DNA from: a bacterium
GTDB lineage: Bacteria; Patescibacteriota; Minisyncoccia; Phycocordibacterales; UBA5272
Assembly: GCA_043765155.1 (NCBI GenBank)
Contig: JAYUJP010000043.1
Span: 1 to 47,482, forward strand
Length of the DNA stretch: 47,482 nt
Reading direction: 5' to 3'
Shown: one piece after another, positions 1,629 through 46,852 of the stretch
How the letters are laid out: every line of letters starts with the position of its first letter
Position numbering within the stretch: the first letter of the stretch is position 1
Notes under the pieces: model-generated
What the model was told of the DNA's origin: nothing
The model's database searches: none
Seen by the model: the letters and a program-made list of their open reading frames with translations, nothing else
Made by a program: the position numbers and the translations under genes

Positions 1629-1672
1629 TAACATAAATCTTAACTTGTAAATATATTTAATTTTGCCAAATA

Positions 1673-1681: not shown

Positions 1682-1787
1682 TAAAATATTATAAATATAG
1701 ATTAAAAAACTTTTTATTTTATAAAGTCTGACCAACTTTGTTATATAAAATAAATAACCCAGTAGGTAATTATACCTAATTAAAAAT

Positions 1788-2634: not shown

Positions 2635-3195
2635 ATGAAAACAAACAAATCAGTAAAAGGAAAAGCGGAAGCATCTTTTGATACATTAAAAGGAGCTTTT
2701 GGTTATACTAACAAGTTAGCGGCACCAAAGCTAACAAAAATAAGTGTGTCAGTAGCTACTGGTACTATGATGAGAAAGGACAGAAAGAGGAATGACCTTG
2801 TTATGGATAGAATAGCAAAAATAACAGGCCAGAAGCCAACACTTAGAAAAGCAAAGCAATCAAATGCGAGCTTTAAAATACGTGAAGGGGACCCAATAGG
2901 AGTGTCAGTAACATTACGTGGGGCGCGCATGTATGACTTTATCGATAAGATAATCAACATAGCACTTCCTCGTACCAAGGACTTTCGCGGACTATCTGCG
3001 ACATCACTTGATAATATTGGTAATATGACTTTTGGTATCAAGGAGCATACGATATTCCCAGAGATAAAAGATGAAGAGATCAAGGACGTATTTGGTATGG
3101 CGGTTACTATGGTAACTACTGCCAAGACAAAAGAGGAGGCAAAAGCATTTTTTGACTTAATCGAAATCCCTTTTAAAAAGGAGGCAAAGAATTAA
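2635..3195 (+). CDS. rplE: 50S ribosomal protein L5
   Basis: Clear similarity to E. coli L5, e.g. ITGQKP, FKIREGDPIGVSVTLRG, ALPRTKDFRGLS, IFPEI and TTAKT. Confidence 0.93.
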   Translation: MKTNKSVKGKAEASFDTLKGAFGYTNKLAAPKLTKISVSVATGTMMRKDRKRNDLVMDRIAKITGQKPTLRKAKQSNASFKIREGDPIGVSVTLRGARMYDFIDKIINIALPRTKDFRGLSATSLDNIGNMTFGIKEHTIFPEIKDEEIKDVFGMAVTMVTTAKTKEEAKAFFDLIEIPFKKEAKN

Positions 3196-4619: not shown

Positions 4620-4745
4620 TTATAATAACTTTTACTCCATCTTTACTTTTTATAATTTAAGTAGTAGTATATGTGAGATAGCTCTTTTGGGGGTTAAATT
4701 AAAACATAACCCAGTTCGTTAACGTCTTAAAGATTGGAGATTCTC

Positions 4746-5321
4746 ATGTTTAGCTCAGTCATTTCGGTTATCCAGAAAATCGTTATCGCTTGCCACGTTA
4801 GTGTTTGGCGATTTTTATTAAGAGGAGAAGTAGTAAAAGATAGGCAAGTTGCCATAGCAATGGTGATATCTTACGCTTGCTGCTCAGTAATGTTTAAAGT
4901 TTTTGCAAAATTACAGCCTGCTTGGCCGCCTACCATTATCCTTTTATTTCTTGGCATATTGGGGACCATCAGTTTTCTTGGAGGTATTAATCAAATTAGA
5001 AAAGGGTTAGCCAGAGACATGTGTATCTTATTAACTTCTGGAAGAGGTGAGACACAATTGTCGCGAGATGCATTTTTGATGCAGCTTTGTTTAAGGAGAC
5101 AGTCCCTTCTTTACATACTTTTCATGATACCAATATACCTAGATCAAAAATATGTGACTTTTAATCTTTTGAGTTCTTTAATGTTTTTATTTTTTTTATT
5201 TCACACCCTAAAATCTTTTGTCTTAGTGGGTCTAGTCTTAACAGACAAAGACCCGCCAAAGAAAAAGGAAAAGAAAGAGGAAGACAAAAAGACGGGAGAT
5301 TTTTCTCTTAACGGAGCCTGA
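4746..5321 (+). CDS. Hypothetical membrane protein with a lysine/glutamate-rich C-terminal tail
   Basis: Long open frame (the listed ORF starts at TTG 4734). ATG 4746 is preceded by a ggag SD (attggagattctcATG). Hydrophobic segments are present and a strong terminator follows. The amino-acid composition (Cys, Trp, Arg) is atypical for the neighbourhood. Confidence 0.45.
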   Translation: MFSSVISVIQKIVIACHVSVWRFLLRGEVVKDRQVAIAMVISYACCSVMFKVFAKLQPAWPPTIILLFLGILGTISFLGGINQIRKGLARDMCILLTSGRGETQLSRDAFLMQLCLRRQSLLYILFMIPIYLDQKYVTFNLLSSLMFLFFLFHTLKSFVLVGLVLTDKDPPKKKEKKEEDKKTGDFSLNGA

Positions 5322-5346
5322 GCATATCTGGTTATTGGTCACAATA

Positions 5347-5376
5347 CAAACCCCTACTTAGTAGGGGTTTTTCTTT
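5347..5376 (+). terminator. Rho-independent terminator
   Basis: aaacccctac-tta-gtaggggttt stem followed by ttcttttg. Confidence 0.8.
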
Positions 5377-5446
5377 TGCAAAAGATCTATAAAAAGGTAT
5401 AGTAAGGGCCGGTATTGGGTGTTAAAAATCTTTACGCAAAAGGCGC

Positions 5447-5475
5447 TTGCAATACTAAAAACTTTATGCTATACT
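5447..5475 (+). promoter_or_regulatory. Sigma70-type promoter, candidate rRNA operon promoter
   Basis: TTGCAA, 17 nt, TATACT, with TGc immediately upstream of the -10 (extended -10). It lies about 435 nt upstream of the 23S 5' end. Confidence 0.55.
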
Positions 5476-6407
5476 TGCTCTCACGTTCGTTGACAATTCA
5501 ATCATAAGCAAAGACAATTTATCTCTATGATAATATTATTTATAATTTTATTTTTAGTAGGGGTCTTTTCGGTCTTTAGCTTATATATCACAAAATCCTA
5601 GTTGCTAATGTATAGCAGCTAGGTAGCTCAAATTAAATAAGAAAGAAATAATTTATGAAAGTAAATCATGTTAATTTTGTTTAAGATGAGAAATCACAAA
5701 AATAATAAGATAATAATTAAATTTTTAATTTAAAATTATCAATGAACTTGTAGCAAAGCATGTCTGTATACGAAAGTGTGCAGACAAAAACATGTGAGAG
5801 TAAATTTAAAAGTTATAATGATAATAAATGTCGCAAGATATTTATAGAAGTAATAACTAATATGTTTACAATTATATGTATAAAAATAGTGGAATGTAGC
5901 ATATACATTTCCTAATAGGAAAAATAAGAGCATGGGGTGGATACCTTGGCTCAAGGAAGCGATGAAGGACGTAGTCAGGCTGCGATAAGCCTCGGGTTGA
6001 TGCCTAACAATCTTACCCGGGGATCTCCGAATGAGGAAACTCTACTAGAGTAATGTCTAGTAACCTAAGGCAGCAGTGCCTAGGAGCATACCCACTGAAG
6101 TGAAACATCTCAGTAAGTGGAGGAAAAGAAACTAAATAAGTATTACGCAAGTAGCGGCGAGCGAAAACGTAGAAGCCCAAACCGACATGCTTGCATGTAC
6201 GGGGTTGTAGGGTAGAGACGTAGAATTATCTAGATTAGTCATAAAATATATTGATAGAAGAATAACCTGGAAAGGTTAGCCATAGAGGGTGATAGCCCCG
6301 TAGTCGAAATCTTTATATCTAATTTGTCTCTATTCCTGAGTATCTCAAGACACGAATAGCTTGGGAGAATCTGCCGGAACTAACCGGTAAGGCTAAATAT
6401 TCCTTGA

Positions 6408-6453
<46 letters not shown>

Positions 6454-7762
6454 GGAAAGGGAGTGAAATAGATTTGAATCCCCATGTTTACAAAGAGTAG
6501 AAGAGGACTTGATCCTCGACTGCGTGCCTATTGAAGAATGAGCGAGCGAGTTAATATATACAGCTGGTTAAGTGGAAGAAAGCCACGGAGCCAAAAGCGA
6601 AAGCGAGTGTGAATAGCGCGAAATAATAGTTGTATGTATTAGACCCGAAGCCAGATGAGCTACCCATGGGCAGGTTGAAGTCTGTCGAAAGATAGATGGA
6701 GGACCGAACCGGTAGGTTGTACGACTCCTTCGGATGACCTGTGGGTTGGAGTGAAAAGCTAATCGAATCTGGTAATAGCTGGTTCTCTCCGAAATAGTTT
6801 TTGGACTAGCGTCATGCGCTGATGTGTGGAGGTAAAGCACTGGAAGGTTTTGACTAGTAGAAATACGGCAACGCCTATCAAACTCTGAATGCCACACAGT
6901 GAAGCATGGCAGTAAGTCTGCGGGGGCGAAGCTCCGTGGACAAGAGGGAAAGAGCCCTGATCGCAAGTTAAGGTCCCAAAGTGTATGCTAAGTGTACTTG
7001 AGGATGTGGAGTTTCATTGACAATGAGGATGTTGGCTTAGAAGCAGCCACCATTGAAAGAAAGAGTAACATCTCACTCATCGAGAGATTCTGCGCCGTAA
7101 ATAATCGGGACTAAAGCATACCACCGAAACTGCGGGCTGTAGCATTTTTGCACAGCGGTAGGAGAGTGTTCCACTCTGCGTTGAAGGTAAAGGGGTGACC
7201 CATACTGGAGCGTGTGGAAGTACGAATGCTTGCACAAGTAACCGCAAGGAAGGTGAGAGCCCTTCCCGCCGAAAGACTAAGGATTCCCACGCAACGTTGA
7301 TCGACGTGGGGTTAGTCGGGCCTAAGGAGATGGCTAACGCCGGATCCGATGGACATAGGGTTAATATTCCCTAACTTGGTAAAATTGTGATGGACTGACG
7401 CATTGTTGTAATTCATGCCCCTTATTGGATTGGGGTAGGGTAGCTGATTGTGTATCGCAGGCAAATCCGCGATATAAATGAGAGGCTAAGCTTGAAGGGT
7501 GTAGCAATACACTTGAAAATGGGTGAGCACGGTGCCAAGAAAAGGTTCTACATTCTGTGAATACAGAACATGACTATTAGTCTATATGAGCGTAAGCTTA
7601 TCCGGATTAATAGTTGTGCGTTAATTTTTTATCAATCCGTACCGTAAACCGACACAGGTAGTCAGGTCGAGTAGACCAAGGCGAACGAGTGATTTCTCCC
7701 CAAGGAACTAGGCAAAAAAGCGGCCGTAAGTTAGCGATAAGGCCTCCCTCCATCACTTTGTC

Positions 7763-8199
7763 TTTAAATATATCGTAAGATATTTTTAAAATAAAGTGCA
7801 TGTGAAGGTTCTAGAGAATTGAAAGTCTGTTTAATTACAGCATTATTATATGTGACGGCAATCCATATAATAAGAGACAAATATGTATGTGTATATAATC
7901 ACATACACACAGATTCTCTGAATCTCTGTCATGCATATGTTTAAGTTAGTTTTATGTGTTTAGTGGAGATTATATTCAGCAACTAAAGGAGATCGTAATG
8001 ATGTATCGAGGTGCATGTAATCCCGATTTTTATCGGGGAGTGAAATTCAGTCGAGTAGAAATGACTGTAGGAAATATTGGCGCCACTATAATTTCTTGCA
8101 TTTATTTACTCGTATTTCTTTCCATGGTATTCTGAAGGTCAATCTTTCAAACCCAAGAGACATCTTGGGGTCTCTACTAAACACATAAGACAATTTGAA
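7763..8199 (+). ncRNA. About 437-nt structured insertion at the apex of 23S helix 63 (expansion segment, IVS or intron; unclassified)
   Basis: Flanked by ccctccatcactttgtc (7746-7762) and gataaagtgatggaggg (8200-8216), which pair and align to E. coli helix 63. Internal long-range helix 7952-7969/8171-8188, a GUAA-capped hairpin at about 7768-7790, and several other hairpins. No credible ORF. Confidence 0.7.
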
Positions 8200-8367
8200 G
8201 ATAAAGTGATGGAGGGCGCAGCGAAAGTGTCCCTGCCGACTGTTTATCAAAAACACAGCTCTGTGCGAACTCGTAAGAGGATGTATACAGGGTGACGCCT
8301 GACCAATGCGGGAAGGTCAAATAATGGTGGTGCGATTATATCAAGCTGGCCGTTATAAGCCCCCGTC

Positions 8368-8415
<48 letters not shown>

Positions 8416-9064
8416 TGGTAAGTTCAGACGTGCACGAATGGCGTAACGAGTGGGGAACTGTCTCGGGGAGTAGCTCGGTGAAAATACATTGGGGGTGAAG
8501 ATGCCCCCTACCTGCAGATAGACGAAAAGACCCCGTGAGCTTTACTCTAGCTTGATATTGCGTTTGTTACTTTGTTGCGTAGAATAGTGGTCAGGGGTTT
8601 GATGTTGTGGGTTTTGGCTCACATCTACCCGACAGTGAAATAGCCATCTTCAAAGTGGCAAGCGCTAACGTGTCCGGAAAAAACGGACGCAGACAGTATC
8701 TGGTGGGGAGTTTAACTGGGGCGGTTCCCTCCTAAAAAGTAACGGAGGGGTTCATTAAGTTCAGCTAGGCGCGAATGGAAACCGTGCCGATAGTGTAAGG
8801 GCATAAGCTGGATTCACTGCAAGACGGACATGTCGAGCAGACAGGAAACTGGGACCTAGTGAACCGACAACACGCATTAGATGCGGTTGAAGATTAACGG
8901 ATAGAAGCTACCACGGGGATAACAGGCTAGTTTTGCCCAAGAGTTCATATCGACGGCAAAGTTCGGCACCTCGATGTCGGCTCATCTTATCCTGGTGGTG
9001 GAGAAGCTACCAAGGGTATGGCTGTTCGCCATTTAAAAAGATACGTGAGCTGGGTTCAAACCGT

Positions 9065-9492
9065 AGAGAATTGTATCAGATAGAATTGATAAGCTATACT
9101 AATATTTACATAGTGATGTGTAATTTTATAAAAATATATATCTCATATATTTTTATAAATAATAATTAGTAATGCTATCAGATGTGTTTTATCTAATAGA
9201 ATTCTCTAAGTTTGAACCCGAGGGTTAAGACTTAACTTAACAAAAAAGACATTGATCACGGCGGTTATGTACAGTGATGTATATAAACAAGCTGACTAAT
9301 ATCGGAAAAATCTTGTAAATTTTTTATACAAGACAATTCCGAGGGAATAATATAATTCCAAAATTATATTTGCCCGTAGAGACTACACGTCAGCGTTCTC
9401 GTAAGAGAATATGCTATAGTCCGATTCCTCTGGTGACAGAGGTTGATAATTATTGAAACCAAGATTATCATTTAAAACACAACCTTCACATG
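9065..9492 (+). ncRNA. Group I intron at the 23S L2593 site, ORF-less
   Basis: The exons rejoin to aaaccgt|cgtgagacag (E. coli GAACGU|CGUGAGACAG). The 5' exon ends in U and the intron ends in G (9492). Guide sequence cacg-gcggtt (9257-9266) pairs with the 3' exon cgtg (P10) and the 5' exon aaccgt with a U-G wobble (P1). P3 is gctgac 9291-9296 / gtcagc 9389-9394. P7 is gacta 9381-9385 / tagtc 9417-9421. P8 is gttctc-GUAA-gagaat. P9 is cctctg-GUGA-cagagg. The core resembles the Tetrahymena AGACUA...AUAUAGUC core. Confidence 0.85.
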
Positions 9493-9993
9493 CGTGAGAC
9501 AGGTTGGTTTCCTATCTTCTGCAGGCGTTCGATTGTTGAGAGGACTTGCCCCTAGTACGAGAGGACCGGGGTGAACTGACCTCTGGTGTATCGGCTCTAC
9601 CGCCAGGTGGATCGCCGAGTAGCTATGTCGGGACTAGATAACTTCTGAAAGCATCTAAGAAGGAAGCTACCCTCAAGATTAACAATCGTTGAAGCGTCCT
9701 AAGAGATTATTAGGTTGATAGGAGCTAGATGTAAGCGCAGTAATGCGTTTAGTCGAGGCTTACTAATTACGCGAAATTCCTATTAGGAAATGTGTATACT
9801 ACAAAATAACATTATTTTGTTTTGTTACAAGTTCGTATTAAGTTTGTGAAAAATAAAAGAGTTGAAACACTCTATAAAAATTTTGTGATATAAAGATTGA
9901 ATTAAAATTAACGAACCAAAATATCTTATATTAGATATTATTGTAAATTAAACTTAAAAACTTAATTTATAATATATTTAGAATTTGAATATT

Positions 9994-10110
9994 CTGTTCT
10001 CCTGATTTGCTTGTGGGGTAATACCTTTTCCCATTCCGAACAGAGTCGTCAAGCCCACAATGAGCGATGATAGTGGATTTATCCGCAAAAGTAGTTTTTC
10101 GGGAGAACAG
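9994..10110 (+). rRNA. rrf: 5S rRNA
   Basis: ctgttctcc...ggagaacag terminal helix, and the conserved cccattccgaacagag...gtcaagcc motif. Confidence 0.9.
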
Positions 10111-10291
10111 AGTATTTAAATTATACAGATTTTTACAGAGTATAGCTTAAGCTTAACTAGACAGGTTGCACTTATAATGTGTGTTCTTGAATCTAGGAAA
10201 GTTTTTAGGGTAACATCCTAAGTATAAAGCGTGTTGCCATGAGCAACAAGATTATTGGTTAAATACCAGTTACTCTGACCACTTTGTAGAC

Positions 10292-10321
10292 GCGCCATCA
10301 ATTTTTGATTGGCGTTTTTTA
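10292..10321 (+). terminator. Rho-independent terminator ending the rRNA operon
   Basis: gcgccatcaa-ttttt-gattggcg stem (one bulge) followed by tttttt. Confidence 0.7.
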
Positions 10322-10347
10322 ATGTTATAATTAGATCTATAAATAGT

Positions 10348-11796
10348 ATGTCCAGATTTAAAGTAAAAGGAGGAAAAGAATTAAGCGGAGAAATAGAGCC
10401 GCAGGGTGCTAAGAATGAAGCGCTACAGATAATAGCGGCGAGTGTATTAGTGCAGAAGATTAAGATAGTTAATTGTCCAAATATTTTAGACGTGCGTAAT
10501 TTGCTTTTAATTTTAGAAAATGGAGGGGCGAAAATAAAATGGAATAAAGAAAATGTTAATAAAAATAATTTCAAATTAGAAGATGAAAAGATGGTGAAAA
10601 AAAATATATCAGAGAAAAATGTTCTATATATAGACACTAGAAATATAAATCAAAAATATTTTGAATCCGAAGAATACTTTAAATTAGCAGAAAAATTGCG
10701 CGGCTCACTTATGCTTATGGGTCCACTGCTTGCAAGATATGGAAGGGCATATATACCTCCAACAGGAGGAGACAAAATAGGTAAGAGGCCTATAGATAGT
10801 CACATAACAGGATTTTTAAAGATAGGTGCGGAGCTTAAAAAAGATAACAAGGGTTATGATTATTTAGAACTTAAAAAAGAAAATATAATAAGTGGCACCG
10901 AGATACTTTTAGATGAGTCGAGTGTAACAGGTACAGCTAATGTATTTATGGCTTTATCGCTTAACGCAAACAATGTTACTGTATTTAATGCTGCGTGCGA
11001 GACTTATATAACTCAACTTCTAACTCTTTTTATAAATTCTAATACATTAGATGTGTATGGGCTTGGATCAAACAGAGTTACTCTAAATACAAAAATTAAA
11101 GAAGAAAATAAATATAATAAAGAGGCAATAGAAAAAGAACCTGCGATTAATTCTTTAATTAAAGAGAAAGAAGAATTAGTAGAACATGTTATTTTACCTG
11201 ATTTTATAGAAGTTGCCAGCTTTATATCTCTTGCCATGGCAACAAAAAGTGAGATTACAATTAAAAATGCTGGTGTGAAATATTTAGGTACTACGCTTAT
11301 GGTGTTTGACAAGCTCGGCTGTAAATATGAGATATTAGGAGATAATATAAAAGTTTTAAAATTAGAAAAGTATATAATACAAAAAATGTATGACGGCTCA
11401 ATGACCACCGTCTATAGTCAGCCGTGGCCTAAAATAAGCCCAGACATACTCAGTGTGGGCATAGTAGCGTCTTTACAGTGTGAAGGCTCTATACTTTTCC
11501 ATGAGACAATGTATGAGGCTAGGATGTTTTTTGTAGATAAGTTAGTAGCCATGAAGGCCAGCATTATTTTGTGTGACCCGCATAGAGTGGTAGTAACAGG
11601 TAATGATTGGAAAAGTAGGCTGCATGCGCGCTCTATGACAAGCCCAGACATAAGGGCCGGCATAGCCCTACTAATAGCAGCCCTAGGTGCTGAGGGTGAG
11701 AGCGTGATAGACAACGCGGAGCAGATAGATAGAGGATATGAGAACATAGAGCTACGCCCCGCTGCGCTCGGTGCAGATATTACAAGGGTAGAGTAA
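10348..11796 (+). CDS. murA: UDP-N-acetylglucosamine 1-carboxyvinyltransferase
   Basis: MSRFKVKGGKELSGEIEPQGAKNEALQIIAAS N-terminus, active-site loop GGDKIGKRPID, and C-terminal DRGYENIE...LGADI. Start moved to ATG 10348, because the listed TTG 10309 lies inside the rRNA terminator. Confidence 0.9.
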   Translation: MSRFKVKGGKELSGEIEPQGAKNEALQIIAASVLVQKIKIVNCPNILDVRNLLLILENGGAKIKWNKENVNKNNFKLEDEKMVKKNISEKNVLYIDTRNINQKYFESEEYFKLAEKLRGSLMLMGPLLARYGRAYIPPTGGDKIGKRPIDSHITGFLKIGAELKKDNKGYDYLELKKENIISGTEILLDESSVTGTANVFMALSLNANNVTVFNAACETYITQLLTLFINSNTLDVYGLGSNRVTLNTKIKEENKYNKEAIEKEPAINSLIKEKEELVEHVILPDFIEVASFISLAMATKSEITIKNAGVKYLGTTLMVFDKLGCKYEILGDNIKVLKLEKYIIQKMYDGSMTTVYSQPWPKISPDILSVGIVASLQCEGSILFHETMYEARMFFVDKLVAMKASIILCDPHRVVVTGNDWKSRLHARSMTSPDIRAGIALLIAALGAEGESVIDNAEQIDRGYENIELRPAALGADITRVE

Positions 11797-38379: not shown

Positions 38380-39027
38380 ATGTTAGACAGTATATTAAAT
38401 AAAATATTTTCTCATGCGACCATAATTTTAGAAAAAGACTCTTTTAATCTTGATTCTGATTATAATAAATTAAAATTAGAATTATCTAAAGCTGGTATAA
38501 ATTATATTTGTTTTGATACCAATCCAAAAGCAACAGATTCTGATAGTAGAAGCTTAAATTTCAAAATAGATGACTTGCAAAAGATAAGAGATTTTCAAAG
38601 TTCAAAATCTAACCAAAAGAGATTTATAATTACAGATAGGAGTCTACGCAATACAGTAATACAAAATGCACTTTTAAAAATATTTGAAGAGCCAACAGAA
38701 AATACCTTTATTATTATTTTTACAAAAGATATAAGCATGCTATTGCCTACTATATTATCTAGATGTCAGCTCATAAAAGATTTAGAAAAAAGTTCAGGGA
38801 AAAATAATATAAATAACAGTGATAAAAATACTACAAAAGAAGAAGCTCCAAATCAAAAAATAAAAGAAAAAATAATAAATACTAAATCTATAAATGCTGC
38901 AAATAGCGAGGGAGATAAATCTGAAAATAGATTTGAAAAATTAGAGAGATTTCTGATTATAGAAAATCTAAACGAGAGGGGGCTAGTAAGTCAAAAGCAA
39001 TTTGAGGAGTACAAAAATTTGGTCTAG
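38380..39027 (+). CDS. holB: DNA polymerase III delta'-like clamp-loader subunit (no Walker A visible)
   Basis: NALLKIFEEPTENTFIIIFT and LPTILSRCQ (sensor/SRC) motifs. The N-terminus lacks a P-loop, and the C-terminal tail is K/N-rich. Confidence 0.6.
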   Translation: MLDSILNKIFSHATIILEKDSFNLDSDYNKLKLELSKAGINYICFDTNPKATDSDSRSLNFKIDDLQKIRDFQSSKSNQKRFIITDRSLRNTVIQNALLKIFEEPTENTFIIIFTKDISMLLPTILSRCQLIKDLEKSSGKNNINNSDKNTTKEEAPNQKIKEKIINTKSINAANSEGDKSENRFEKLERFLIIENLNERGLVSQKQFEEYKNLV

Positions 39028-39044
39028 AAATTTTCTTAAAAATG

Positions 39045-39053
39045 TGCTATTAT
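39045..39053 (+). promoter_or_regulatory. Extended -10 element TGcTATTAT upstream of the tRNA pair
   Basis: Read directly. Confidence 0.35.
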
Positions 39054-39134
39054 ATGTGTTAGTTCTGAAGGTAAATTCTTTTGGAAAGATCTTAATTTCT
39101 CTAAAGTAAAAGCTTAAGAAAATATACAAAAAGC

Positions 39135-39217
39135 GCCCGGGTGGCGGAATGGTAGACGCAAGAGACTTAAAATCTCTCGAAGATTACTTCGTGCGGGTTC
39201 GAGTCCCGCCCCGGGCA
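39135..39217 (+). tRNA. tRNA-Leu(TAA), CCA not encoded
   Basis: Cloverleaf folded by hand: acceptor gcccggg/cccgggc, anticodon loop ctTAAaa, long variable arm cgaag-atta-cttcg, T arm gcggg-ttcgagt-cccgc. Confidence 0.9.
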
Positions 39218-39257
39218 CAAGCAAAATTAGTCGATAGAGCAGGCCAGTCCTGCAAAT

Positions 39258-39330
39258 GCCCTTATAGCTCAGTTGGTAGAGCAACTCCCTCTTAAGGAGA
39301 TGGTCGTAGGTTCGAATCCTACTGAGGGCA
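39258..39330 (+). tRNA. tRNA-Lys(CTT), CCA not encoded
   Basis: Cloverleaf folded by hand: acceptor gccctta/tgagggc, D arm gctc-agttggta-gagc, anticodon loop ctCTTaa, T arm gtagg-ttcgaat-cctac. Confidence 0.9.
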
Positions 39331-39392
39331 CAATTTTAGAATAAAATTTAACAATGTAAAAAATTATTTTTACCTTATATTTAACTTTCTTT

Positions 39393-39509
39393 TTACTCCA
39401 TATGCACCTCTTCAAAAGTTGAGAGTTTGGTTTTTAACTCTGGGAAATTATCGAGATAAAGGTCATTGCTTATTATCTGCGTCGCATACTTTTTGGTAGC
39501 CTCGACAAG
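39393..39509 (-). pseudogene. Orphan copy of the recG 3' end (last 38 codons plus stop)
   Basis: 111 of 117 nt are identical to 43988-44104. It translates on the minus strand to LVEATKKYATQIISNDLYLDNFPELKTKLSTFEEVHME-stop. No upstream recG body is attached. Confidence 0.85.
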
Positions 39510-39598
39510 AAATATTATTTTTGGCTGACTTGTAATATTTTTATTTTTAGTGTAATATTATAGGCGGACTTATTTTTGCACTTTTTAAAGGAAACGAA

Positions 39599-40729
39599 AT
39601 GATACATGACTTAAACGATCTGCTTAATAAAGTAGATGAACCATATAAATCAGCTTTTTTTAACCATAGGGATACAGCCCTCAGCAGCTATGCGACAGTT
39701 GGTGAAAATGGTGCGCATAGAGAGGCAATATTGGGTACATTAGATTTGTACCCATCCAGAGCCCTTTGCCTAACTAGGCCAAATGACATCATACAACTTT
39801 CTCCAAAACTAGAGAAGTTGTGGAGTTTTATTCAGAGTCACTACAGAAGAGTTGGACTAAAGGTGACACAAGATGTAATCTGGTCTGATAACCTAGATGA
39901 ATACAAAGCCTCAATATATTCCCGCTATGACTTTTCTGGCTTCATGGGAACAGAAGAACTGTTAGAAGCTTATGGTCTTCGACATATTCAAGTGGCAAGT
40001 ACTCTTAACTCAAAAACTAAGTTTATGGAGCTATGTGTTGAATTAGGTATAAGCACTCCAGAAACCTTCTGGTCTAGAGATTACTTATCTAAGAAAGATA
40101 ACTTTCCTGTTTCTGGGTATTTTAAAGCAGACGAGTCAGTTTCCGGACTAGGAGTATTGAAGTATGACTCACCAGAGGAATTAGATGATCTTGTAAAAGC
40201 TTATCGCAGTAGCAGCTGGCAAGTCCAACGAGATGTAATGCCTGTTAAGTTTCTAAATCTGCAATACACGCTAGATGATTTTTCTTGGAAAGCTCTAGCT
40301 ATGACTGAACAGATTCTTAATGGTAATTCTCATGTTGGAAATCAGTTTCCTTCTAGCGTAAGTATTGAGACTAGAGACTACGGAAATATCCTTGACCATG
40401 CACAAAAGTTTGGCTTTAGGGGGGTTTTAGGCTTAGATGTTTTAGTGGACGCAGAAGGTAAAAGTTATGTTTTGGAGTGTAACCCAAGACTTAACGGAAG
40501 CACTTATCCTACCGTAACCGCTAAAAGATTAGGCGTAGTCAAATGGTTAGCCATATCGGTACACTCTTCTTTTAGAGATATTTCAGAAATACTAGAGCGT
40601 CATTCTTTTGATGGCAACAAGGGCGTAGTTGTGTTTAATTGGGGGGCTTTATTGTCAGATAAAGCTGGCATAATGATTGCTGGCGATGATAATTACCAGA
40701 AAGAGATAATGTCTTTATTTACGAGTTAG
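39599..40729 (+). CDS. ATP-grasp fold ligase with an uncharacterised N-terminal domain of about 130 aa
   Basis: C-terminal GLDVLVDAEGKSYVLECNPRLNGSTYP is the ATP-grasp Mg/ATP-binding signature. An SD aagga is present upstream. Confidence 0.65.
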   Translation: MIHDLNDLLNKVDEPYKSAFFNHRDTALSSYATVGENGAHREAILGTLDLYPSRALCLTRPNDIIQLSPKLEKLWSFIQSHYRRVGLKVTQDVIWSDNLDEYKASIYSRYDFSGFMGTEELLEAYGLRHIQVASTLNSKTKFMELCVELGISTPETFWSRDYLSKKDNFPVSGYFKADESVSGLGVLKYDSPEELDDLVKAYRSSSWQVQRDVMPVKFLNLQYTLDDFSWKALAMTEQILNGNSHVGNQFPSSVSIETRDYGNILDHAQKFGFRGVLGLDVLVDAEGKSYVLECNPRLNGSTYPTVTAKRLGVVKWLAISVHSSFRDISEILERHSFDGNKGVVVFNWGALLSDKAGIMIAGDDNYQKEIMSLFTS

Positions 40730-40756
40730 TACTGGAGTCTGTATGATAACCTTAAA

Positions 40757-40787
40757 AGAGAAGTGTTTTGCGCTTCTCTTTTTTTAT
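40757..40787 (+). terminator. Rho-independent terminator inside the cassette
   Basis: agagaagtg-ttttg-cgcttctct followed by ttttttt. Confidence 0.75.
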
Positions 40788-40807
40788 TGTATAATATATT
40801 CACATAT

Positions 40808-41740
40808 ATGAAAAATTATACTTTAATTATCCATGGTGGAGCCGGTCTTGTTTTTAATCATGATAAGTATAAAGACTCTATGCAAAAAGTTTTAGATGTT
40901 GGAGACTCTATGCTATCTCAAGGTCAAAGCTCTTTGGATGTTGTTGAGTGTTGTGTTCGCATGCTCGAAGATGACCCTCTTTATAATGCAGGTTATGGCT
41001 CAGTTCTAACCAGTGAAGGTAATGTAGAGATGGATGCAGCTATTATGGACGGGGCTAATCTCTCTAATGGTGCAGTAGCTGCTATTACAAACGTGAGACA
41101 CCCTATCAGTGTAGCAAGAGCGGTAATGGAAAAAACAAATCATGTTTTTCTGGTTGCAAAAGGTGCTCAGGATTTTATTAATACTTTGGATAACATTGAA
41201 AAATGTAATCAAGATGATCTTATAATAGATTACAGAAGAGAGCAGTTAAAAGAAGCTGTTGCAAAAAATGAAGTTAGACTAGATCACTCTAGTCTAGATT
41301 CAAAAGAAAGAAAATTTAGTACTGTCGGTGCTGTAGCTTTAGATACGTCAGGTAACCTGGCCGCTGCAACTTCTACAGGGGGTATAGTTAATAAAAAGTT
41401 TGGCAGAGTCGGAGATACTCCAATAATAGGGGCTGGCACTATAGCGGATAATAACTCATGCGCTGTATCTTGTACAGGATTCGGAGAGCAATTTATAAAA
41501 ATATCTGTCGCAAAAAGAGTCGCTGACTACATAGAGCTACTTGGTATGAACGCTCAATCTGCCGCTAATAAAGTTAGAGATGAACTGGTGCAGAAAGTTG
41601 GAGGTTTAGGAGGTTTTATAGTTATAGACAAAAATGGGAATATCGGAGTGTCACATTCTAGTCCTTGTATTTTATTTGCAACTAGTAAAAATGGAATCAA
41701 AAATATTGGGGTAAATAGTCAAGACTTGTTAAAAGTTTAA
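40808..41740 (+). CDS. Ntn-hydrolase isoaspartyl peptidase / plant-type L-asparaginase
   Basis: IIHGGAG, DPLYNAGYGSVL, DAAIMDG, the autoprocessing site S-TVGAVALD, and GRVGDTPIIGAG. Start set at ATG 40808, because the listed GTG 40763 lies inside the upstream terminator. Confidence 0.85.
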   Translation: MKNYTLIIHGGAGLVFNHDKYKDSMQKVLDVGDSMLSQGQSSLDVVECCVRMLEDDPLYNAGYGSVLTSEGNVEMDAAIMDGANLSNGAVAAITNVRHPISVARAVMEKTNHVFLVAKGAQDFINTLDNIEKCNQDDLIIDYRREQLKEAVAKNEVRLDHSSLDSKERKFSTVGAVALDTSGNLAAATSTGGIVNKKFGRVGDTPIIGAGTIADNNSCAVSCTGFGEQFIKISVAKRVADYIELLGMNAQSAANKVRDELVQKVGGLGGFIVIDKNGNIGVSHSSPCILFATSKNGIKNIGVNSQDLLKV

Positions 41741-41785
41741 ATTTAGTGTAAAATTGGAAAGGATCATTTTTTACAAAGGAAATAT

Positions 41786-43015
41786 ATGAAAACATTAGAA
41801 ATGCTAAAAAGTAGAGGCCTTGTTCATCAGATTACTGATGAAAAAAGCTTATCAGCTGCTTTTGATCAGGGTCCTGTAACTTTTTACATAGGCTTTGACC
41901 CAACAGCAGATTCTCTGCATGTCGGTAGTTTAAAAGGTATCATGGTGGCTGCACACTTACAACGCATGGGACATGTCCCTGTAATGTTGGTTGGTGGCGG
42001 TACTGGATTAATCGGTGACCCTAGCGGCAAATCAAAAGATCGGAATATATTATCTTCGGAGATTTTGAAGCATAACGAGTCTTGCATAGGTTTGCAGCTT
42101 CAAAAATTTGTTAACACAAATAATCCTGAAGGCTTTTTCTTAAATAATGCAGACTGGTTAAAAAGTTTGAATTATTTAGAATTTCTAAGAGATGTTGGAG
42201 TTTATTTTAGAGTTAACGAAATGGTTAAGAACGACACCTACAGGCTTAAGCTTGATTCTGGTGAAGGTTTATCTTTTGTTGAGTTTAACTATCAGCTCTT
42301 ACAGGCTTATGATTTCAAATATCTTTTTGAAAAATATAATTGTTCTTTACAAATAGGGGGCAGTGATCAGTGGGGAAATATAACCGCAGGTACAGATCTT
42401 GTACGCAGGTCAAATGGCGCAAATGTTTTTGGCTTAACCATACCACTGGCTCAGACTTCAGATGGTAAAAAAATGGGTAAGACGGAAAGCGGCGCTGTTT
42501 GGTTAGATGCAAACAAGACCACGCCTTATGACTTTTATCAGTTTTGGATCAACTGTACAGACGAGGATGTGTTTAACTTTTTAAAAGTTTATACATTTAT
42601 GTCTGTTTCAGATATCGACTCTTTGCCAAGAGTTAGTCATGTTGATCTAAAAAAAGCTAAGGAAACCCTTGCTTATATAGTCACAGAAATCGTTCATGGA
42701 GATAAACTTGCCGATGAAGCAAAAGCAAAATCAAATAGTTTATTTTCTGAAGATGGGGACAAACATGATCTGGCTATACAAGTTGGGGTATCGCGCTCTG
42801 ATGCTGAGTCAAAGACAATTGTTTCTGTTTTGTCAGAAGCAGATTCGTCTGTAAGTAAATCAGAGCTACGTAGGCTTATTACCAGTAATGCAGTAAAAGC
42901 AGACGGGTTAGTCTTGAAAAGTGATGTCTCGCTAGACGAACTTTTTCCCTCAGGTCAAGATAAGATTTTGATTACTGTAGGCAAAAAAAAGTTTTTTTCT
43001 GTTAAGTTAATTTAA
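41786..43015 (+). CDS. tyrS: Tyrosyl-tRNA synthetase (bacterial type with a C-terminal S4-like domain)
   Basis: GFDPTADSLHVGSL (HIGH region), LVGGGTGLIGDPSGK, QAYDF, GGSDQWGNI, and KMGKT (KMSKS region). Confidence 0.92.
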   Translation: MKTLEMLKSRGLVHQITDEKSLSAAFDQGPVTFYIGFDPTADSLHVGSLKGIMVAAHLQRMGHVPVMLVGGGTGLIGDPSGKSKDRNILSSEILKHNESCIGLQLQKFVNTNNPEGFFLNNADWLKSLNYLEFLRDVGVYFRVNEMVKNDTYRLKLDSGEGLSFVEFNYQLLQAYDFKYLFEKYNCSLQIGGSDQWGNITAGTDLVRRSNGANVFGLTIPLAQTSDGKKMGKTESGAVWLDANKTTPYDFYQFWINCTDEDVFNFLKVYTFMSVSDIDSLPRVSHVDLKKAKETLAYIVTEIVHGDKLADEAKAKSNSLFSEDGDKHDLAIQVGVSRSDAESKTIVSVLSEADSSVSKSELRRLITSNAVKADGLVLKSDVSLDELFPSGQDKILITVGKKKFFSVKLI

Positions 43016-43033
43016 AGAAAGTGATGGTGTAAA

Positions 43034-43924
43034 ATGGCTAAAAAAATTATTGCCTATTTAGGGCCAGAAGGAGCTTCTTTTGGTTATCAGGCAGCGGTAA
43101 AGTATTTAGCGATTACCAGTAAACAGAGAGAGTATGCTGCAGTCTCATATAAATCCCATGAAGGAATTTGTGAAGCTGTTGCCCTGGGTAATGTCAGTCT
43201 TGGTGTAGTAGCTATTGAGAATACTGTGGCCGGATTTGTCGAAGAGACACTAGCCTCACTTGCTCATTGGCAGACACTAGAGTCCATAAAAGCGATACAG
43301 GAAGTGTCTCTTGTTGTGGATATACGAGCATACTCAAAAGATGGTAAGATGCCAGCTGATCTAAAGAGAATATTTTCTCATGGTGTTGGCATAACTCAAT
43401 GCTCAAGGTATGTTGAATTGATGCGCTCCAAGTATCCAGAAATGGTTGCTGAGGCTGTTGCTTCAACTGGTGATGCCGCAAAGAGGGCTTCAGAAGTAGC
43501 TGGTTCAATAGCTTTGACTGGTTCAGTTGCTGCAAAAAAGTATAACTTATTTGCAGCAGAGCCAGATCTAAAAACTGATTCAAATAGCCACACAAGATTT
43601 TTCATAGTGTCAAAATCGTCAGATAAGATCGATCCTGAAAAAGTTGATTTTGCAGAATACAAAACTATGATGTGTTTTGAGATGACATTGGCGCAATCTG
43701 GCTGTTTACAAAAAACCCTGAGCTTTTTTTCTAGTCAGGATATAAATATGAGGGTTGTTCATGAAATAAGAACACCTAACCGTTTATGGGAGTATCGTTT
43801 TCTTGTAGAATTTGAATGTCATGTTCATCAAGATTCTTTCAGGAGAGCTTTAGGAAATTTCAACAAAAGTGGCATATCTATGGCACCACCAATAATTTAC
43901 GGCTCCTATTTAAAAGGGATTTAA
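43034..43924 (+). CDS. pheA: Prephenate dehydratase with a C-terminal ACT domain
   Basis: IAYLGPEGASFGYQAA, ENTVAGFV, NSHTRFFIV, and an ACT region EIRTPNRLWEYRFLVEFECH (ESRP-type motif). Confidence 0.85.
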   Translation: MAKKIIAYLGPEGASFGYQAAVKYLAITSKQREYAAVSYKSHEGICEAVALGNVSLGVVAIENTVAGFVEETLASLAHWQTLESIKAIQEVSLVVDIRAYSKDGKMPADLKRIFSHGVGITQCSRYVELMRSKYPEMVAEAVASTGDAAKRASEVAGSIALTGSVAAKKYNLFAAEPDLKTDSNSHTRFFIVSKSSDKIDPEKVDFAEYKTMMCFEMTLAQSGCLQKTLSFFSSQDINMRVVHEIRTPNRLWEYRFLVEFECHVHQDSFRRALGNFNKSGISMAPPIIYGSYLKGI

Positions 43925-43930
43925 TTATTT

Positions 43931-43960
43931 ACAGCAGGTATTAGTACCTGCTGTTTTTAT
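43931..43960 (+). terminator. Rho-independent terminator
   Basis: acagcaggta-ttag-tacctgctgt followed by tttt. Confidence 0.85.
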
Positions 43961-43987
43961 TTTATAGGTAGAAGATTTTATGACTCC

Positions 43988-46240
43988 CTACTCCATATGC
44001 ACCTCTTCAAAGGTTGCGAGTTTGGTTTTTAACTCTGGGAAATTGTCAAGATAAAGGTCATTGCTTATCATCTGCGTCGCATACTTTTTGGTAGCCTCGA
44101 CAAGCTTCAGATTCTGCAGTGCCTGCATACCTAGGTCGCTCATACCCGACTGATTACGTGAGAGCAGTGATCCGATGCCGCGCGTGTTCATGTCTAGCTC
44201 AGCAAGCTCAAATCCGTTTATGGTGGAGCAGAAATTCTTGAGCCTGCCTACACTCACCTCATTAACACTATCTGAAAATAGTATACAGCGGCTCGCATGT
44301 TCTCCGCGCCCAATACGTCCGCGCAGCTGATGTAGCTGAGACATACCGAACCTATCAGCATTTTCTATTATCATGATTGTCGCATTAGGCACGTTAACGC
44401 CTACCTCGACGAGGCTAGTCGCTATTAAGATTTGTATTTTGTTATCCTTGAACTCGCTCATTATCTCCTCCTTGTCTTCGTTTTTAATCTTACTATGTAG
44501 GCCGGCTATATTAACATGGGACTTGTTATTTTTGACTAGATACTTTTCTATACTTTCGACTTCGCTTTCTACTGATCTACGTTCTTTTTTTTCAGGACCA
44601 GAATCTTCTGAAAAACTTTTACTTTTGTTCTCTTCTTTTTCTGCGTCCACTCCTATCTTTGTACAGACTATATATATCTGCCTACCGTTTTCTATTTCAT
44701 TTATCATGTCATCATAAACTTTTTCCCTATCTTTTTCATATTTGAAAAATGTCTTTATCTCTTTTCTTCCTTTTGGCAGCTCATCTATTATTGATAAGTC
44801 TAGGTCGCCAAATATAGAGAGGGCGAGTGTTCTAGGTATTGGTGTTGCTGTCATTGAGAGTAAGTGAGGTATCTCCATTCTTGTATCTCCTTTTTTGTGG
44901 GCCAAGTCTTTACGGGTATTAATACCAAATCTATGCTGCTCGTCTATAATTACGAGCGAGAGGTCCTTGAACTCGACGCGCTTCTTGGTGACGGCGTGCG
45001 TCCCCACCAGTAATGACACCTCACCGCTAGCGACCCACTTTATAAGCTGAGGCTTACTCACACTAGTGTATGAGTCAGGATTAGCTTTGGATGGGAACTT
45101 GAGAGCCTGCTTACCGGATAGATAGCCTACGCTAATACCAGTATGAGCGAGTAATTGTATCAATGTCTCATATTGCTGCAATGCTAATATCTCGGTAGGC
45201 GCAAGGTATACAGCCTGCAGAGGGGTGCCAGCTTTTTTATTGTCTCTCTTACTCTTGATAACTGCGTATATGAGGGCAGCAGCGACAAGAGTCTTACCTG
45301 ACCCCACATCACCTTCGAGCAGTCTTTGCATCGGCCTACCACTTTTTAGGTCTATGAGCATATCACTCAAAACTTTCTTCTGTGCACCTGTTGGAGTGAT
45401 ATTATGCAAAGAGAAAAATTCATCTATATAGGGTTCATTTATAATATACGCCAGTGACCCCTTGGCTAAAAATTTCTCTTGGACTATTTTGAGCTGCACA
45501 TAGAACATCTCCTCAAAAAGAAATCTTTTTTTGGCGGCCTGCGCTAACTTTTCGTCAGTAGGGAAATGTGTATATAACACAGCGTCCCTGATATCAGGTA
45601 GATGTAATTCGTCTTTTATATATTTTGGTACGGGATCCACTAATCCCTTTTTAAAATAGTCGCTACTTATGATCTTTCTTATACTCTCATATATAAACTT
45701 ACTACTTATATTTTTGGTCTCATTGTAGACTGGGGTTAGCTTACCGTATTTTTCAGTTAGCTTATCATTTTCTTCTGAGCTGATTAGATTCTTTTTAGAA
45801 AAAAGTGAGTCACCAGCCTCGGGTATACTGTTAATCTTTTCAATATTAGGATTACTAATAGTCAGTCCGCCTGGCTTTTGCTCAGGCTTACCGCTTATCA
45901 TAACTAGACTATTTTCAGGATACATTTTGCCTATGTAGGGCTGATTAAACCAAAACAACTTGAGCTCCTTTTGCCCGTCACTAAAAGTCGCCTCAGTCAT
46001 ATTTATTTTACTTTTCCAAGCTTTTTTGACTGTCACCTTTTTCATAGTACCGTACAGCGTCACTAGCTCGCCGGGGACTATATTTTCTATACTACTATTA
46101 TCGCCGTACCTAATATATCTTACCGGCTGATAACGCAGCAGGTCATCAACATTCAAAATCCCAAGCCTGTATAGCGCCTCTTTTTGCAGCGGAGTTATAC
46201 GCTTATAAGTCTCAATGTTTCTAGCTATATTCTTTTCCAT
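43988..46240 (-). CDS. recG: ATP-dependent DNA helicase RecG
   Basis: Wedge-domain N-terminus and helicase motifs GDVGSGKT, DEQHRFG, LSMTATPIPRTL, QLHQLRGRIGRG. It also contains a K/E/S-rich insertion. Confidence 0.92.
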   Translation of the reverse strand: MEKNIARNIETYKRITPLQKEALYRLGILNVDDLLRYQPVRYIRYGDNSSIENIVPGELVTLYGTMKKVTVKKAWKSKINMTEATFSDGQKELKLFWFNQPYIGKMYPENSLVMISGKPEQKPGGLTISNPNIEKINSIPEAGDSLFSKKNLISSEENDKLTEKYGKLTPVYNETKNISSKFIYESIRKIISSDYFKKGLVDPVPKYIKDELHLPDIRDAVLYTHFPTDEKLAQAAKKRFLFEEMFYVQLKIVQEKFLAKGSLAYIINEPYIDEFFSLHNITPTGAQKKVLSDMLIDLKSGRPMQRLLEGDVGSGKTLVAAALIYAVIKSKRDNKKAGTPLQAVYLAPTEILALQQYETLIQLLAHTGISVGYLSGKQALKFPSKANPDSYTSVSKPQLIKWVASGEVSLLVGTHAVTKKRVEFKDLSLVIIDEQHRFGINTRKDLAHKKGDTRMEIPHLLSMTATPIPRTLALSIFGDLDLSIIDELPKGRKEIKTFFKYEKDREKVYDDMINEIENGRQIYIVCTKIGVDAEKEENKSKSFSEDSGPEKKERRSVESEVESIEKYLVKNNKSHVNIAGLHSKIKNEDKEEIMSEFKDNKIQILIATSLVEVGVNVPNATIMIIENADRFGMSQLHQLRGRIGRGEHASRCILFSDSVNEVSVGRLKNFCSTINGFELAELDMNTRGIGSLLSRNQSGMSDLGMQALQNLKLVEATKKYATQMISNDLYLDNFPELKTKLATFEEVHME

Positions 46241-46390: not shown

Positions 46391-46852
46391 TTACTCATCT
46401 ACAAGATTAGTATCGTGTAATTTTCTCTCAGAATTATTTTTATTTTTACCCCAATACGGTATCACGCTCCAGAAAAAAGGAGAAGAATCCTGCACTTTTT
46501 TTATAATAACTTTAATTCTTTTGTCGGCTACAACAGCAAAGAATTCATAATAAGTTATTTTTACTAGTTTCGTATCTGTCCTACTATGTATTCTTATTTT
46601 TTCAAATCCTTGAGTTTCTTGTATACCTTGCAGTGTATGAGATCTGCTAACTATATCACTTACAAGATGTAAATTTTTGAATCTAGAAATTTGATCCTTT
46701 TTGTTTCTTGCTATACGCTCCCTTTTAAATTTAAGATGGTCTAAACCTCTAGAGTTAAAGAGTATATCTTGTTTTAAGAAAGGGCAATATACAGTATCAA
46801 TTTCTTTATACTTTAATTCTGCCTCGTCTTTTATTTTATCAAAATTATCCAT
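46391..46852 (-). CDS. Hypothetical protein (153 aa)
   Basis: ORF with a coding-like composition and no motif I can name. Confidence 0.5.
   Translation of the reverse strand: MDNFDKIKDEAELKYKEIDTVYCPFLKQDILFNSRGLDHLKFKRERIARNKKDQISRFKNLHLVSDIVSRSHTLQGIQETQGFEKIRIHSRTDTKLVKITYYEFFAVVADKRIKVIIKKVQDSSPFFWSVIPYWGKNKNNSERKLHDTNLVDE

Follow-up and report, generated by a model that had tools for sequence, protein, structure and literature searches.

A four-gene block beside recG in a Patescibacteria contig as a probable composite of two separately conserved gene pairs

The window analysed here is the whole 47,482-nucleotide stretch of contig JAYUJP010000043.1 (GenBank assembly GCA_043765155.1), and the element under study is a block of four plus-strand genes that encode an ATP-grasp ligase, an Ntn isoaspartyl peptidase, a tyrosyl-tRNA synthetase (TyrRS, gene tyrS) and a prephenate dehydratase (PDT) with an ACT-like domain. 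Taken as a whole, the results favour, at a moderate level of confidence, a composite of two two-gene operons, the ligase with the peptidase (pair A) and tyrS with the PDT gene (pair B), that lies within a 4.6-kb insertion. The presence, positions and identities of the four genes, as given in an initial annotation made from the sequence alone, were borne out by open reading frame (ORF) calls and by Pfam and NCBIfam profiles (Table 1). The description of these genes as one compact unit gave way to that of two independently conserved pairs with separate promoter-like boxes, the first of which is replaced in a sister strain.

Results

Conservation of the two gene pairs

The association of the ligase gene with a hydrolase gene was evident from the neighbourhoods of the 80 best genome loci, against which the four window proteins were compared by tblastn. 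Thus, a gene of the Asparaginase_2 family was situated directly 3' of the ligase gene and on the same strand in 34 of the 35 gammaproteobacterial loci with enough sequence, as well as in one of the four Patescibacteria loci of this set (a Saccharibacteria locus), and was divergent to the ligase gene in two basal cyanobacterial loci, while the remaining cyanobacterial loci had no such gene. In one subclade of Patescibacteria, the place of the peptidase downstream of the ligase was taken by an ArgE/DapE-type M20 hydrolase, and on a neighbour-joining tree of the ATP-grasp family, Patescibacteria were basal and the M20 partner was restricted to that one subclade. Neither tyrS nor a PDT gene was found near the ligase gene in any of the 80 loci, and each of the other neighbouring families was common to 13 or fewer of them. 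Since a peptidase or M20 partner recurs and tyrS and PDT are absent from these loci, the ligase and its hydrolase form a conserved unit. Conserved neighbours of the cyanobacterial ligase genes, judged from their sequences, were set aside as unrelated housekeeping genes (psbD-like, ycf4-like, KAS, ftsH and chlB-like). To our knowledge, systematic coupling of an iaaA-type gene to an ATP-grasp ligase gene has not been described, and a literature search for the ATP-grasp/isoaspartyl-peptidase pair found no relevant paper. Two loci labelled Gammaproteobacteria, L012 and L032 (32% and 40% GC, respectively), encode ATP-grasp proteins that grouped with those of Patescibacteria on the tree and may be mis-binned contigs; L032 also resembles L007 in having both an M20 partner and a U32 peptidase.

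Conservation of the second pair was noted when metagenome contigs were searched with an alignment of PDTs from tyrS-linked loci. In 15 of the 18 loci that had room upstream and a PDT at least 31% identical, tyrS was directly upstream of the PDT gene, as opposed to none of 38 loci with more distant PDTs, and no ligase or peptidase gene was present in any of these tyrS-PDT loci. Given this adjacency in the absence of pair A, tyrS-PDT constitutes another pair that is conserved independently, one that is particular to this group of Patescibacteria. The same arrangement occurs in L092 and L095, and the genes for the nearest TyrRS relatives outside the four-gene loci, P0020 (58% identical) and P0024 (48%), are directly upstream of a PDT gene, again with neither ligase nor peptidase at the locus. 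A gene for a hisC-type aminotransferase was noted near tyrS-PDT in L010, L108 and L113. No relevant paper was found in a literature search for a tyrS-PDT operon in Patescibacteria. The region upstream of tyrS-PDT in sister loci mostly contains genes for a small P-loop kinase and an HD, LMW-PTP-like (low-molecular-weight protein tyrosine phosphatase) or PP2C-like phosphatase (Table 1); the best matches of the kinase, which are weak, were PSTK/KTI12 and AAA_33.

Exchange of one pair next to the other was evident from a comparison of the window with sister strain L180, in which RecG, TyrRS and PDT are 98%, 96% and 97% identical, respectively, and the DNA is 93.6% identical over 4.5 kb. The homology stops at window position 41761, 25 nt before the start of tyrS and just 3' of the promoter-like box that precedes this gene, and where the window has pair A, L180 has a PP2C-like gene (4732-5111) that is 64% identical to the one in L092. 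Thus, the site upstream of tyrS varies between close strains. The box upstream of tyrS and the one upstream of the ligase gene are 79% alike, and the pattern of the latter also occurs 5' of the first genes in L092 and L004. Together with the replacement in L180, the separate boxes and the terminator-like hairpins make the two pairs candidates for separate transcription units that are exchanged separately between close strains.

The full order ligase-peptidase-tyrS-PDT was found in two other, divergent lineages of Patescibacteria with unrelated flanks, L004, in which the ATP-grasp protein is 52% identical to that of the window and one extra small ORF is present, and L010, in which it is 38% identical and a hisC-type aminotransferase gene is directly in front of the four genes. 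Conserved co-occurrence of all four genes, which the initial annotation had raised, thus holds for these lineages, whereas elsewhere the pairs are conserved independently of each other. Approximately 3 kb 3' of the block in L010 (14063-17898) are genes for a PALP enzyme, an ornithine-cyclodeaminase-family enzyme, a radical SAM protein and a D-Ala-D-Ala-ligase-like protein; the combination of PALP and ornithine-cyclodeaminase-family enzymes is that of the SbnA/SbnB route to 2,3-diaminopropionate.

ATP-grasp ligase

The ATP-grasp protein contains the sequence ECNPRLNGS at residues 293-301 and scored 26.8 bits against PF02655, for which the cut-off is 23.2. Residues K176, SVSG 180-183, D280, E293, N295 and R297 were invariant in 17 aligned members of the family, and membership of the ATP-grasp superfamily was indicated by a Foldseek probability of 1.00 to many ATP-grasp structures. 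By sequence profile, the top PDB match was LdmS (7r8p, E 1.6e-10), with matches to BL00235 and PGM1 as well, and LdmS was also the best structural match of the AlphaFold model (pLDDT 80.7; Foldseek E 6.5e-17, TM 0.68, approximately 390 columns), followed by the Streptomyces peptide ligase 8ynd, BesA and PGM1, with PurK and carboxylases ranked lower. Because these four are the nearest structures, the protein is predicted to be L-amino-acid-ligase-like, as opposed to RimK-like or a housekeeping ligase, in answer to the classification that the initial annotation had called for. It is no orthologue of LdmS, as seen from a score of 27.5 bits against the NCBIfam LdmS model NF047900 (cut-off 475). 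The "unknown N-terminal domain" ascribed to it earlier proved, on comparison of the AlphaFold model with LdmS, to be the ordinary N-domain of the L-amino-acid-ligase fold, with a family-specific FNH motif at the N-terminus. Across the family, the region that corresponds to window residues 1-55 contains from one to four copies of a hydrophobic-hydrophobic-Asn-His motif, of which N22 and H23 are invariant, and four copies are present in P0010 and P0018.

In LdmS, the aspartate pocket consists of Q244, N255, R305, N307, G308 and S309 (PMC9486568). These residues align with Q238, N248, R297, N299, G300 and S301 of the window protein, all of which vary little or not at all across the family, and because of this alignment and conservation aspartate is proposed as the carboxylate substrate of the ligase.

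The family is a small one. A word-indexed search found only 18 relatives among 5.8 billion clusters, a full search of 1.84 billion representatives with a hidden Markov model (HMM) found 166 clusters at E<=1e-30, and a pattern scan with one genome per species found relatives encoded in 291 species, mostly sulfur-oxidising Gammaproteobacteria, filamentous and pleurocapsalean Cyanobacteria, and Patescibacteria. Three members (P0285, P0310 and P0384) are fusions of 843-853 aa to a MurF-like ligase, an arrangement that suggests the logic of Ddl followed by MurF, in which a dipeptide is made and then added, and that fits a dipeptide product. In L186, such a fusion (8001-10532) is flanked by overlapping genes for proteins of 625 and 346 aa, neither of which had a Pfam or PDB match, and then by an ABC transporter. 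Identity of the window protein with cyanophycin synthetase was considered and rejected, there being no match to a model of that enzyme and no CphA among the PDB sequence matches.

Isoaspartyl peptidase

The Asparaginase_2 ORF at 40763-41740 encodes 325 aa from a GTG start or 310 aa from the ATG at 40808, which is the start taken by gene callers; the hairpin that follows the ligase gene overlaps the GTG. In an alignment that covered its full length (E 2.5e-64), the protein matched EcAIII of Escherichia coli (2zak), with the nucleophile at T172 in KFS-TVGAVALD and conservation of TSTGG and GRVGDTP. From this autoproteolytic site and the aspartate-binding residues, the protein is assigned by sequence to the class of Ntn isoaspartyl aminopeptidases and plant-type asparaginases, although its score was below the NCBIfam equivalog cut-off (252 vs 567 bits).

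TyrRS and PDT

The TyrRS scored 370 bits against TIGR00234 (cut-off 113.8) and aligned over its full length with TyrRS from E. coli, Staphylococcus aureus and Bacillus stearothermophilus at E values of approximately 1e-96. The tyrosine-binding motifs LLQAYDF and QIGGSDQWGNIT align with those of the E. coli and S. aureus enzymes. The reading of the HIGH motif as HVGS, noted earlier as a peculiarity, is real but is no peculiarity. Thus, the fourth position among the 120 closest homologues, which represent many phyla, was S in 63, N in 42, H in 14 and T in one, such that 105 of the 120 carried HxG[SN], and KMGKT was present in 112. Nor was the divergence expected of a self-resistance copy seen, in that the protein shares 45-60% identity with ordinary TyrRS across many phyla, and HxG[SN] is the norm. 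By these sequence comparisons, it is classed as an ordinary bacterial-type orthologue with the normal motif of its subfamily. No second tyrS was found within the 47-kb window, the only sequence searched. The gene in the window is most likely the housekeeping copy and, we infer, the only copy in the genome.

The C-terminal half of PDT can be aligned, up to approximately residue 278, with the ACT region of PDT-ACT proteins of known structure, and its ESRP motif reads EIRTP. Residues E62, N63, S115, H116, Q122, T187, R188 and F189 (in ENT..G.V.E, SH....QC and TRF) were invariant in the subfamily. The E. coli P-protein requires the Thr of TRF, and decarboxylases of the BacA type are short and consist of the PDT domain only. 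With regard to whether this homologue keeps the catalytic residues of a dehydratase, both the TRF motif and the regulatory domain are kept, and its only NCBIfam matches were to prephenate dehydratase models, all below cut-off (144 vs 219). The lone PDT that had been singled out as an oddity of the genome is the rule in this lineage. A possible aroA in the window, an EPSP_synthase-family gene at 10309-11796, turned out to be murA.

Direct repeats and insertion

That the block lies within an insertion, as first proposed, agrees with a 116-nt duplication of the 3' end of recG that brackets the four genes (Table 1). The two copies are identical at 111 of 116 positions (96%). The left copy lies between a tRNA-Lys gene and the ligase gene, has kept the reading frame and has the stop TAA vs TAG, and of the five coding differences from the right copy, three are synonymous and two conservative. 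Downstream of recG, an 83%-identical sister species has a CAP-domain gene and a 68%-identical relative has hisS-ybeY-ftsA-ftsZ, while the strain with 98% RecG identity also has tyrS-PDT beside recG. Similar repeats, each derived from the 3' end or 3' part of a neighbouring gene, bound the tyrS-PDT blocks of L092, L097 and L113. The copies in L113 differ at 14 synonymous and two nonsynonymous codons, a bias that points to divergence as functional alleles in different genomes before the copies were joined. Comparable repeat pairs were uncommon, only 14 being present across the 2.17 Mb of loci that were fetched.

In L004 and L010, no direct repeats were found to bound the four-gene blocks apart from AT-rich chance matches. 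The native copy of the window repeat could not be told from the other, as both are equally distant from recG of relatives, and no signature of foreign composition was noted, GC and GC3 (GC content at third codon positions) of the block being within the range of the other 36 genes. An integrase-driven genomic island was considered and rejected, as repeats are present but all four enclosed genes are metabolic or translational. We infer instead that circularised DNA from related strains was integrated through one homologous crossover within the adjacent gene. No paper on repeat-bounded tyrS-PDT insertions was found.

Other features of the window

Proteins of the window have their closest relatives among sequences labelled Patescibacteria, and the window appears to be that of a low-GC, small-genome bacterium of this type (also known as the candidate phyla radiation, CPR), with protein genes that average 35% GC. 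It also holds one 23S and one 5S rRNA gene, two tRNA genes, and cell-wall and translation genes. The block is flanked by tRNA genes, a holB-like gene and recG, and the intergenic gaps across its four genes are 78, 45 and 18 nt. A search of 39000-44300 with Rfam (E<=1) for a riboswitch or T-box leader found none, only two tRNAs and matches at chance level.

The 23S rRNA gene (5914-9786) spans 3873 nt as compared with the 2925 positions of the model, which indicates approximately 950 nt of insertions, and no intron family was recognised in these at E<=0.01. At the left edge of the window (1-231) are approximately 9-10 tandem copies of the 21-nt unit TGAGCTTAAATCAGACGTATC, which probably lie within a heptad repeat encoded by a gene that extends beyond the window. 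A 153-aa ORF with no family match (46391-46852) is situated between recG and a conserved 124-aa gene; in L181, from the 83%-identical sister species, the 124-aa gene abuts recG directly.

Table 1. Positions of the features of the four-gene block and of related features in other loci
Locus	Feature	Position	Strand	Remarks
Window	Left 116-nt direct-repeat copy	39394-39509	-	Orphan duplicate of the last 38 codons and stop of recG
Window	Promoter-like box 5' of ATP-grasp gene	39527-39559	+	CTTG, spacer, TAGTGTAATATT; consensus match only
Window	ATP-grasp ligase, 376 aa	39599-40729	+	Predicted LdmS-like L-amino-acid-ligase fold
Window	Terminator-like hairpin between ligase and peptidase genes	40754-40782	+	13-bp stem then T run; consensus match only
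Window	EcAIII/IaaA-type Ntn isoaspartyl aminopeptidase/asparaginase, 310 aa	40808-41740	+	PF01112, 336 bits
Window	Promoter-like box 5' of tyrS	41723-41755	+	Resembles box at 39527-39559
Window	TyrRS, bacterial type, full length, 409 aa	41786-43015	+	TIGR00234, 370 bits; HVGS and KMGKT
Window	PDT with C-terminal ACT-like domain, 296 aa	43034-43924	+	PF00800, 116 bits
Window	Terminator-like hairpin 3' of PDT gene	43931-43954	+	10-bp stem then TTTTATTTT
Window	Right 116-nt direct-repeat copy	43989-44104	-	Functional 3' end of recG (43988-46240, - strand)
L092	Repeat, 45 nt	700-743 / 4423-4467		dnaE 3' end; bounds kinase, PP2C-like, tyrS, PDT
L097	Repeat, 178 nt	4844-5019 / 8936-9112		iscU-like 3' end; bounds kinase, HD, tyrS, PDT
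L113	Repeat, 332 nt	2705-3036 / 8967-9298		dnaJ 3' part; bounds aminotransferase, 230-aa protein, M20, LMW-PTP, tyrS, PDT
L092	Kinase/phosphatase genes 5' of tyrS-PDT	837-2199		
L095	Kinase/phosphatase genes 5' of tyrS-PDT	6521-7888		
L097	Kinase/phosphatase genes 5' of tyrS-PDT	5236-6584		
L108	Kinase/phosphatase genes 5' of tyrS-PDT			
L113	Kinase/phosphatase genes 5' of tyrS-PDT	6143-6577		

Discussion

Under the composite reading, the ligase of pair A would join aspartate to a second amino acid at the expense of ATP and the peptidase would hydrolyse the product again, so that the two would act as a make-and-break pair and the dipeptide would be a small reserve or buffer pool, built and released. 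That the ligase product is an aspartyl dipeptide is put forward tentatively, at less than even confidence, as the specific chemistry within this picture. Such a product would probably be linked through the β-carboxyl, since the class to which the partner peptidase belongs cleaves only β-aspartyl bonds and needs the free α-amino and α-carboxyl groups of Asp, and since the partner in the sister subclade is a deacylase of the ArgE/DapE type, which removes succinyl-like groups. In pair B, tyrS would be co-transcribed with the PDT-ACT gene, and PDT would act as the dehydratase in phenylalanine synthesis, with prephenate or arogenate as its substrate. In sister genomes, a hisC-type aminotransferase is often added to this pair; the corresponding enzyme type of Bacillus subtilis also acts as an aromatic aminotransferase. 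The whole block or its parts would pass from one related genome to another by recombination events that leave a second copy of the 3' end of the adjacent gene.

Several observations weigh against this interpretation. With regard to pair A, the ATP-grasp family is without a biochemically characterised member, and Asparaginase_2 is directly downstream of the ligase in none of 32 cyanobacterial loci. LdmS forms α-linked Asp-Met while EcAIII-type enzymes cleave β bonds, and the β linkage is deduced from the partner as opposed to the ligase itself. With regard to pair B, no source of prephenate is visible and no shikimate-pathway gene is present within the window, and the copy count of tyrS covers the 47-kb window, such that a second copy elsewhere is possible. 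As for the insertion, Pfam and NCBIfam profiles identified no integrase, transposase or other mobility gene in or beside the block, and an empty site was not found in the same species, all contigs with identical RecG carrying the block. Finally, the four-gene order is kept in L004 and L010 despite only 38-52% identity of the ATP-grasp proteins, and in L009 a 186-aa PDT-only protein (with TSF, not TRF) and an aminotransferase adjoin an ATP-grasp/M20 pair. This recurrence, along with the layout of L009, leaves room for a looser functional tie of pair A with Phe/Tyr genes, to which we assign a low probability.

Some of these observations also support the reading put forward in the initial annotation, by which all four genes form one biosynthetic module of the bacilysin type. 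In such a module, the PDT homologue and an aminotransferase would give an aromatic amino acid or derivative, the ligase would add Asp to yield a bioactive dipeptide, the peptidase would activate or detoxify this product and the TyrRS would be a dedicated or resistant copy. Three lineages whose flanks differ share the gene order, an aminotransferase gene is directly upstream in L010, both an aminotransferase and a short PDT-only protein accompany the ATP-grasp/M20 pair of L009, and the ligase, like BacD, is L-amino-acid-ligase-like. Such a module nevertheless appears improbable, given that pair A is accompanied by neither tyrS nor PDT at any of the 80 genome loci, pair B is without pair A in 15 of 18 loci, the sister strain lacks pair A at the site, and promoter-like boxes and a hairpin separate the genes. 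Moreover, the TyrRS is ordinary in both motif and similarity, PDT keeps TRF and the ACT part and matched prephenate dehydratase models only, and no genes of the BacB, BacC or BacG type, or any other bac-type tailoring gene, are present in the window. The more mundane alternative, raised at the same time, of a horizontally moved housekeeping tyrS together with Phe/Tyr and isoAsp genes fits the evidence better.

A role in the cell envelope, by which the ligase would make a dipeptide in the manner of Ddl, a Mur-type ligase would add this dipeptide to an envelope or polymer precursor and the hydrolase would trim or recycle it, seems quite unlikely. The three natural fusions to a MurF-like ligase agree with such a role, as does the abundance of cell-wall genes in the window (murA, rodA/ftsW, mreB, mreC and PBP2), and a precedent exists in lactic acid bacteria, whose ATP-grasp D-aspartate ligase is mentioned in PMC4155827. 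This enzyme forms β-aspartyl cross-bridges. However, the fusions represent only 3 of 166 clusters, no Mur-type gene adjoins that of the ligase in the window or at any of the 80 loci, the proteins encoded beside the L186 fusion are unknown ones, and peptidoglycan is of the standard type in those Gammaproteobacteria and Cyanobacteria in which the family occurs. An equally small chance is given to a juxtaposition of pairs that share neither history nor function, with the repeat as a by-product of local rearrangement as opposed to a horizontal insertion. While the unexceptional GC and GC3 of the block, the lack of a mobility gene and the equal distance of both repeat copies from recG of relatives would be expected from such an event, recurrence of the order of pair A followed by pair B in L004 and L010 would not, nor would repeats from the 3' ends of neighbouring genes around tyrS-PDT blocks in four genomes, the mainly synonymous differences between repeat copies, or the other neighbours of recG in relatives. 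Similarly slight is the probability that we attach to a reading in which the site 5' of tyrS-PDT is a swap position for make-and-break pairs that reversibly derivatise Tyr or Phe, the block being an integrase-free cassette. The pairs seen there are an ATP-grasp protein and an isoaspartyl or M20 hydrolase or, in sister genomes, a PSTK/KTI12-like P-loop kinase and an HD, LMW-PTP or PP2C phosphatase. Their products, e.g., β-Asp-Tyr or O-phospho-Tyr, would be a soluble reserve feeding TyrRS, and the cassette would enter new genomes through homologous recombination in the 3' end of an adjoining housekeeping gene.

Among known systems, pair A, as understood in the composite reading, most resembles LdmS and HmrA of S. 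aureus, in which an L-Asp-L-Met ligase (7r8p/7r8q) is encoded in an operon with an M20 peptidase (PMC9486568). The motif E/D-x-N-x-R-x-N-G-S, the residues of the Asp pocket and the N-terminal loop region are shared, a ligase gene is paired with a peptidase gene in each case, and sister Patescibacteria even use an M20 enzyme. The role of the ligase/hydrolase pair is also unexplained in both, as the authors of the LdmS study could not account for the coupling of the ligase with a possible hydrolase of its product (PMC9486568). In contrast with LdmS, the window ligase, which is approximately 15% identical to it and far below the cut-off of its NCBIfam model, belongs to a family with its own repeated N-terminal motif that occurs in Patescibacteria, sulfur-oxidising Gammaproteobacteria and Cyanobacteria, not in Firmicutes, and its partner is an Ntn isoaspartyl peptidase. 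That partner shares with EcAIII/IaaA (2zak, 1k2x) the autoproteolytic site, the Thr nucleophile, TSTGG and GRVGD but differs in its score below the equivalog cut-off and in the systematic coupling of its gene to that of an ATP-grasp ligase.

The bacilysin genes (BacA, BacF and BacD) are comparable in that a PDT-fold protein and an ATP-grasp protein of the L-amino-acid-ligase type are encoded close together, with an aminotransferase in L010 and L009. In contrast, the window ligase and PDT belong to separately conserved pairs, equivalents of BacB, BacC and BacG are lacking, no cupin or SDR genes are present in the block, and PDT, at 296 aa with an ACT-like half and TRF, appears by size and motifs to be set apart from BacA. 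A literature search for residue comparisons of BacA and AerD found nothing relevant. The fusions to a MurF-like domain likewise recall Ddl-MurF and cyanophycin synthetase, whereas the window protein has no Mur domain and no match to the cyanophycin synthetase model, which gave only a faint match of 15.7 bits in the Mur part of one fusion. The breakdown of cyanophycin ends with the action of an isoaspartyl dipeptidase. As in islands of the tRNA/tmRNA type, the direct repeats correspond to the 3' end of a flanking gene that stays intact. Unlike such islands, the insertions described here have no integrase, are targeted to protein genes (recG, dnaE, iscU-like and dnaJ), have repeats of 45-332 nt with allele-like, mostly synonymous differences, and always include an aminoacyl-tRNA synthetase gene in the cargo.

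The normal occurrence of HVGS and a lone PDT in this lineage is a useful negative, as neither points to a biosynthetic cluster. In several CPR genomes, an essential aminoacyl-tRNA synthetase gene is found inside a repeat-bounded insertion, and the allele-like differences carried by the repeats that bound tyrS-PDT blocks suggest an integrase-free exchange of housekeeping genes in the form of cassettes. The ligase/peptidase pair, in turn, defines a small cross-phylum family without a characterised member. Isoaspartyl dipeptides are usually ascribed to protein damage or to the breakdown of cyanophycin. Should the ligase indeed form a β-aspartyl dipeptide that its partner cleaves, the pair would provide a dedicated enzymatic route to such dipeptides and would offer a testable function for the equally puzzling layout of LdmS and HmrA.

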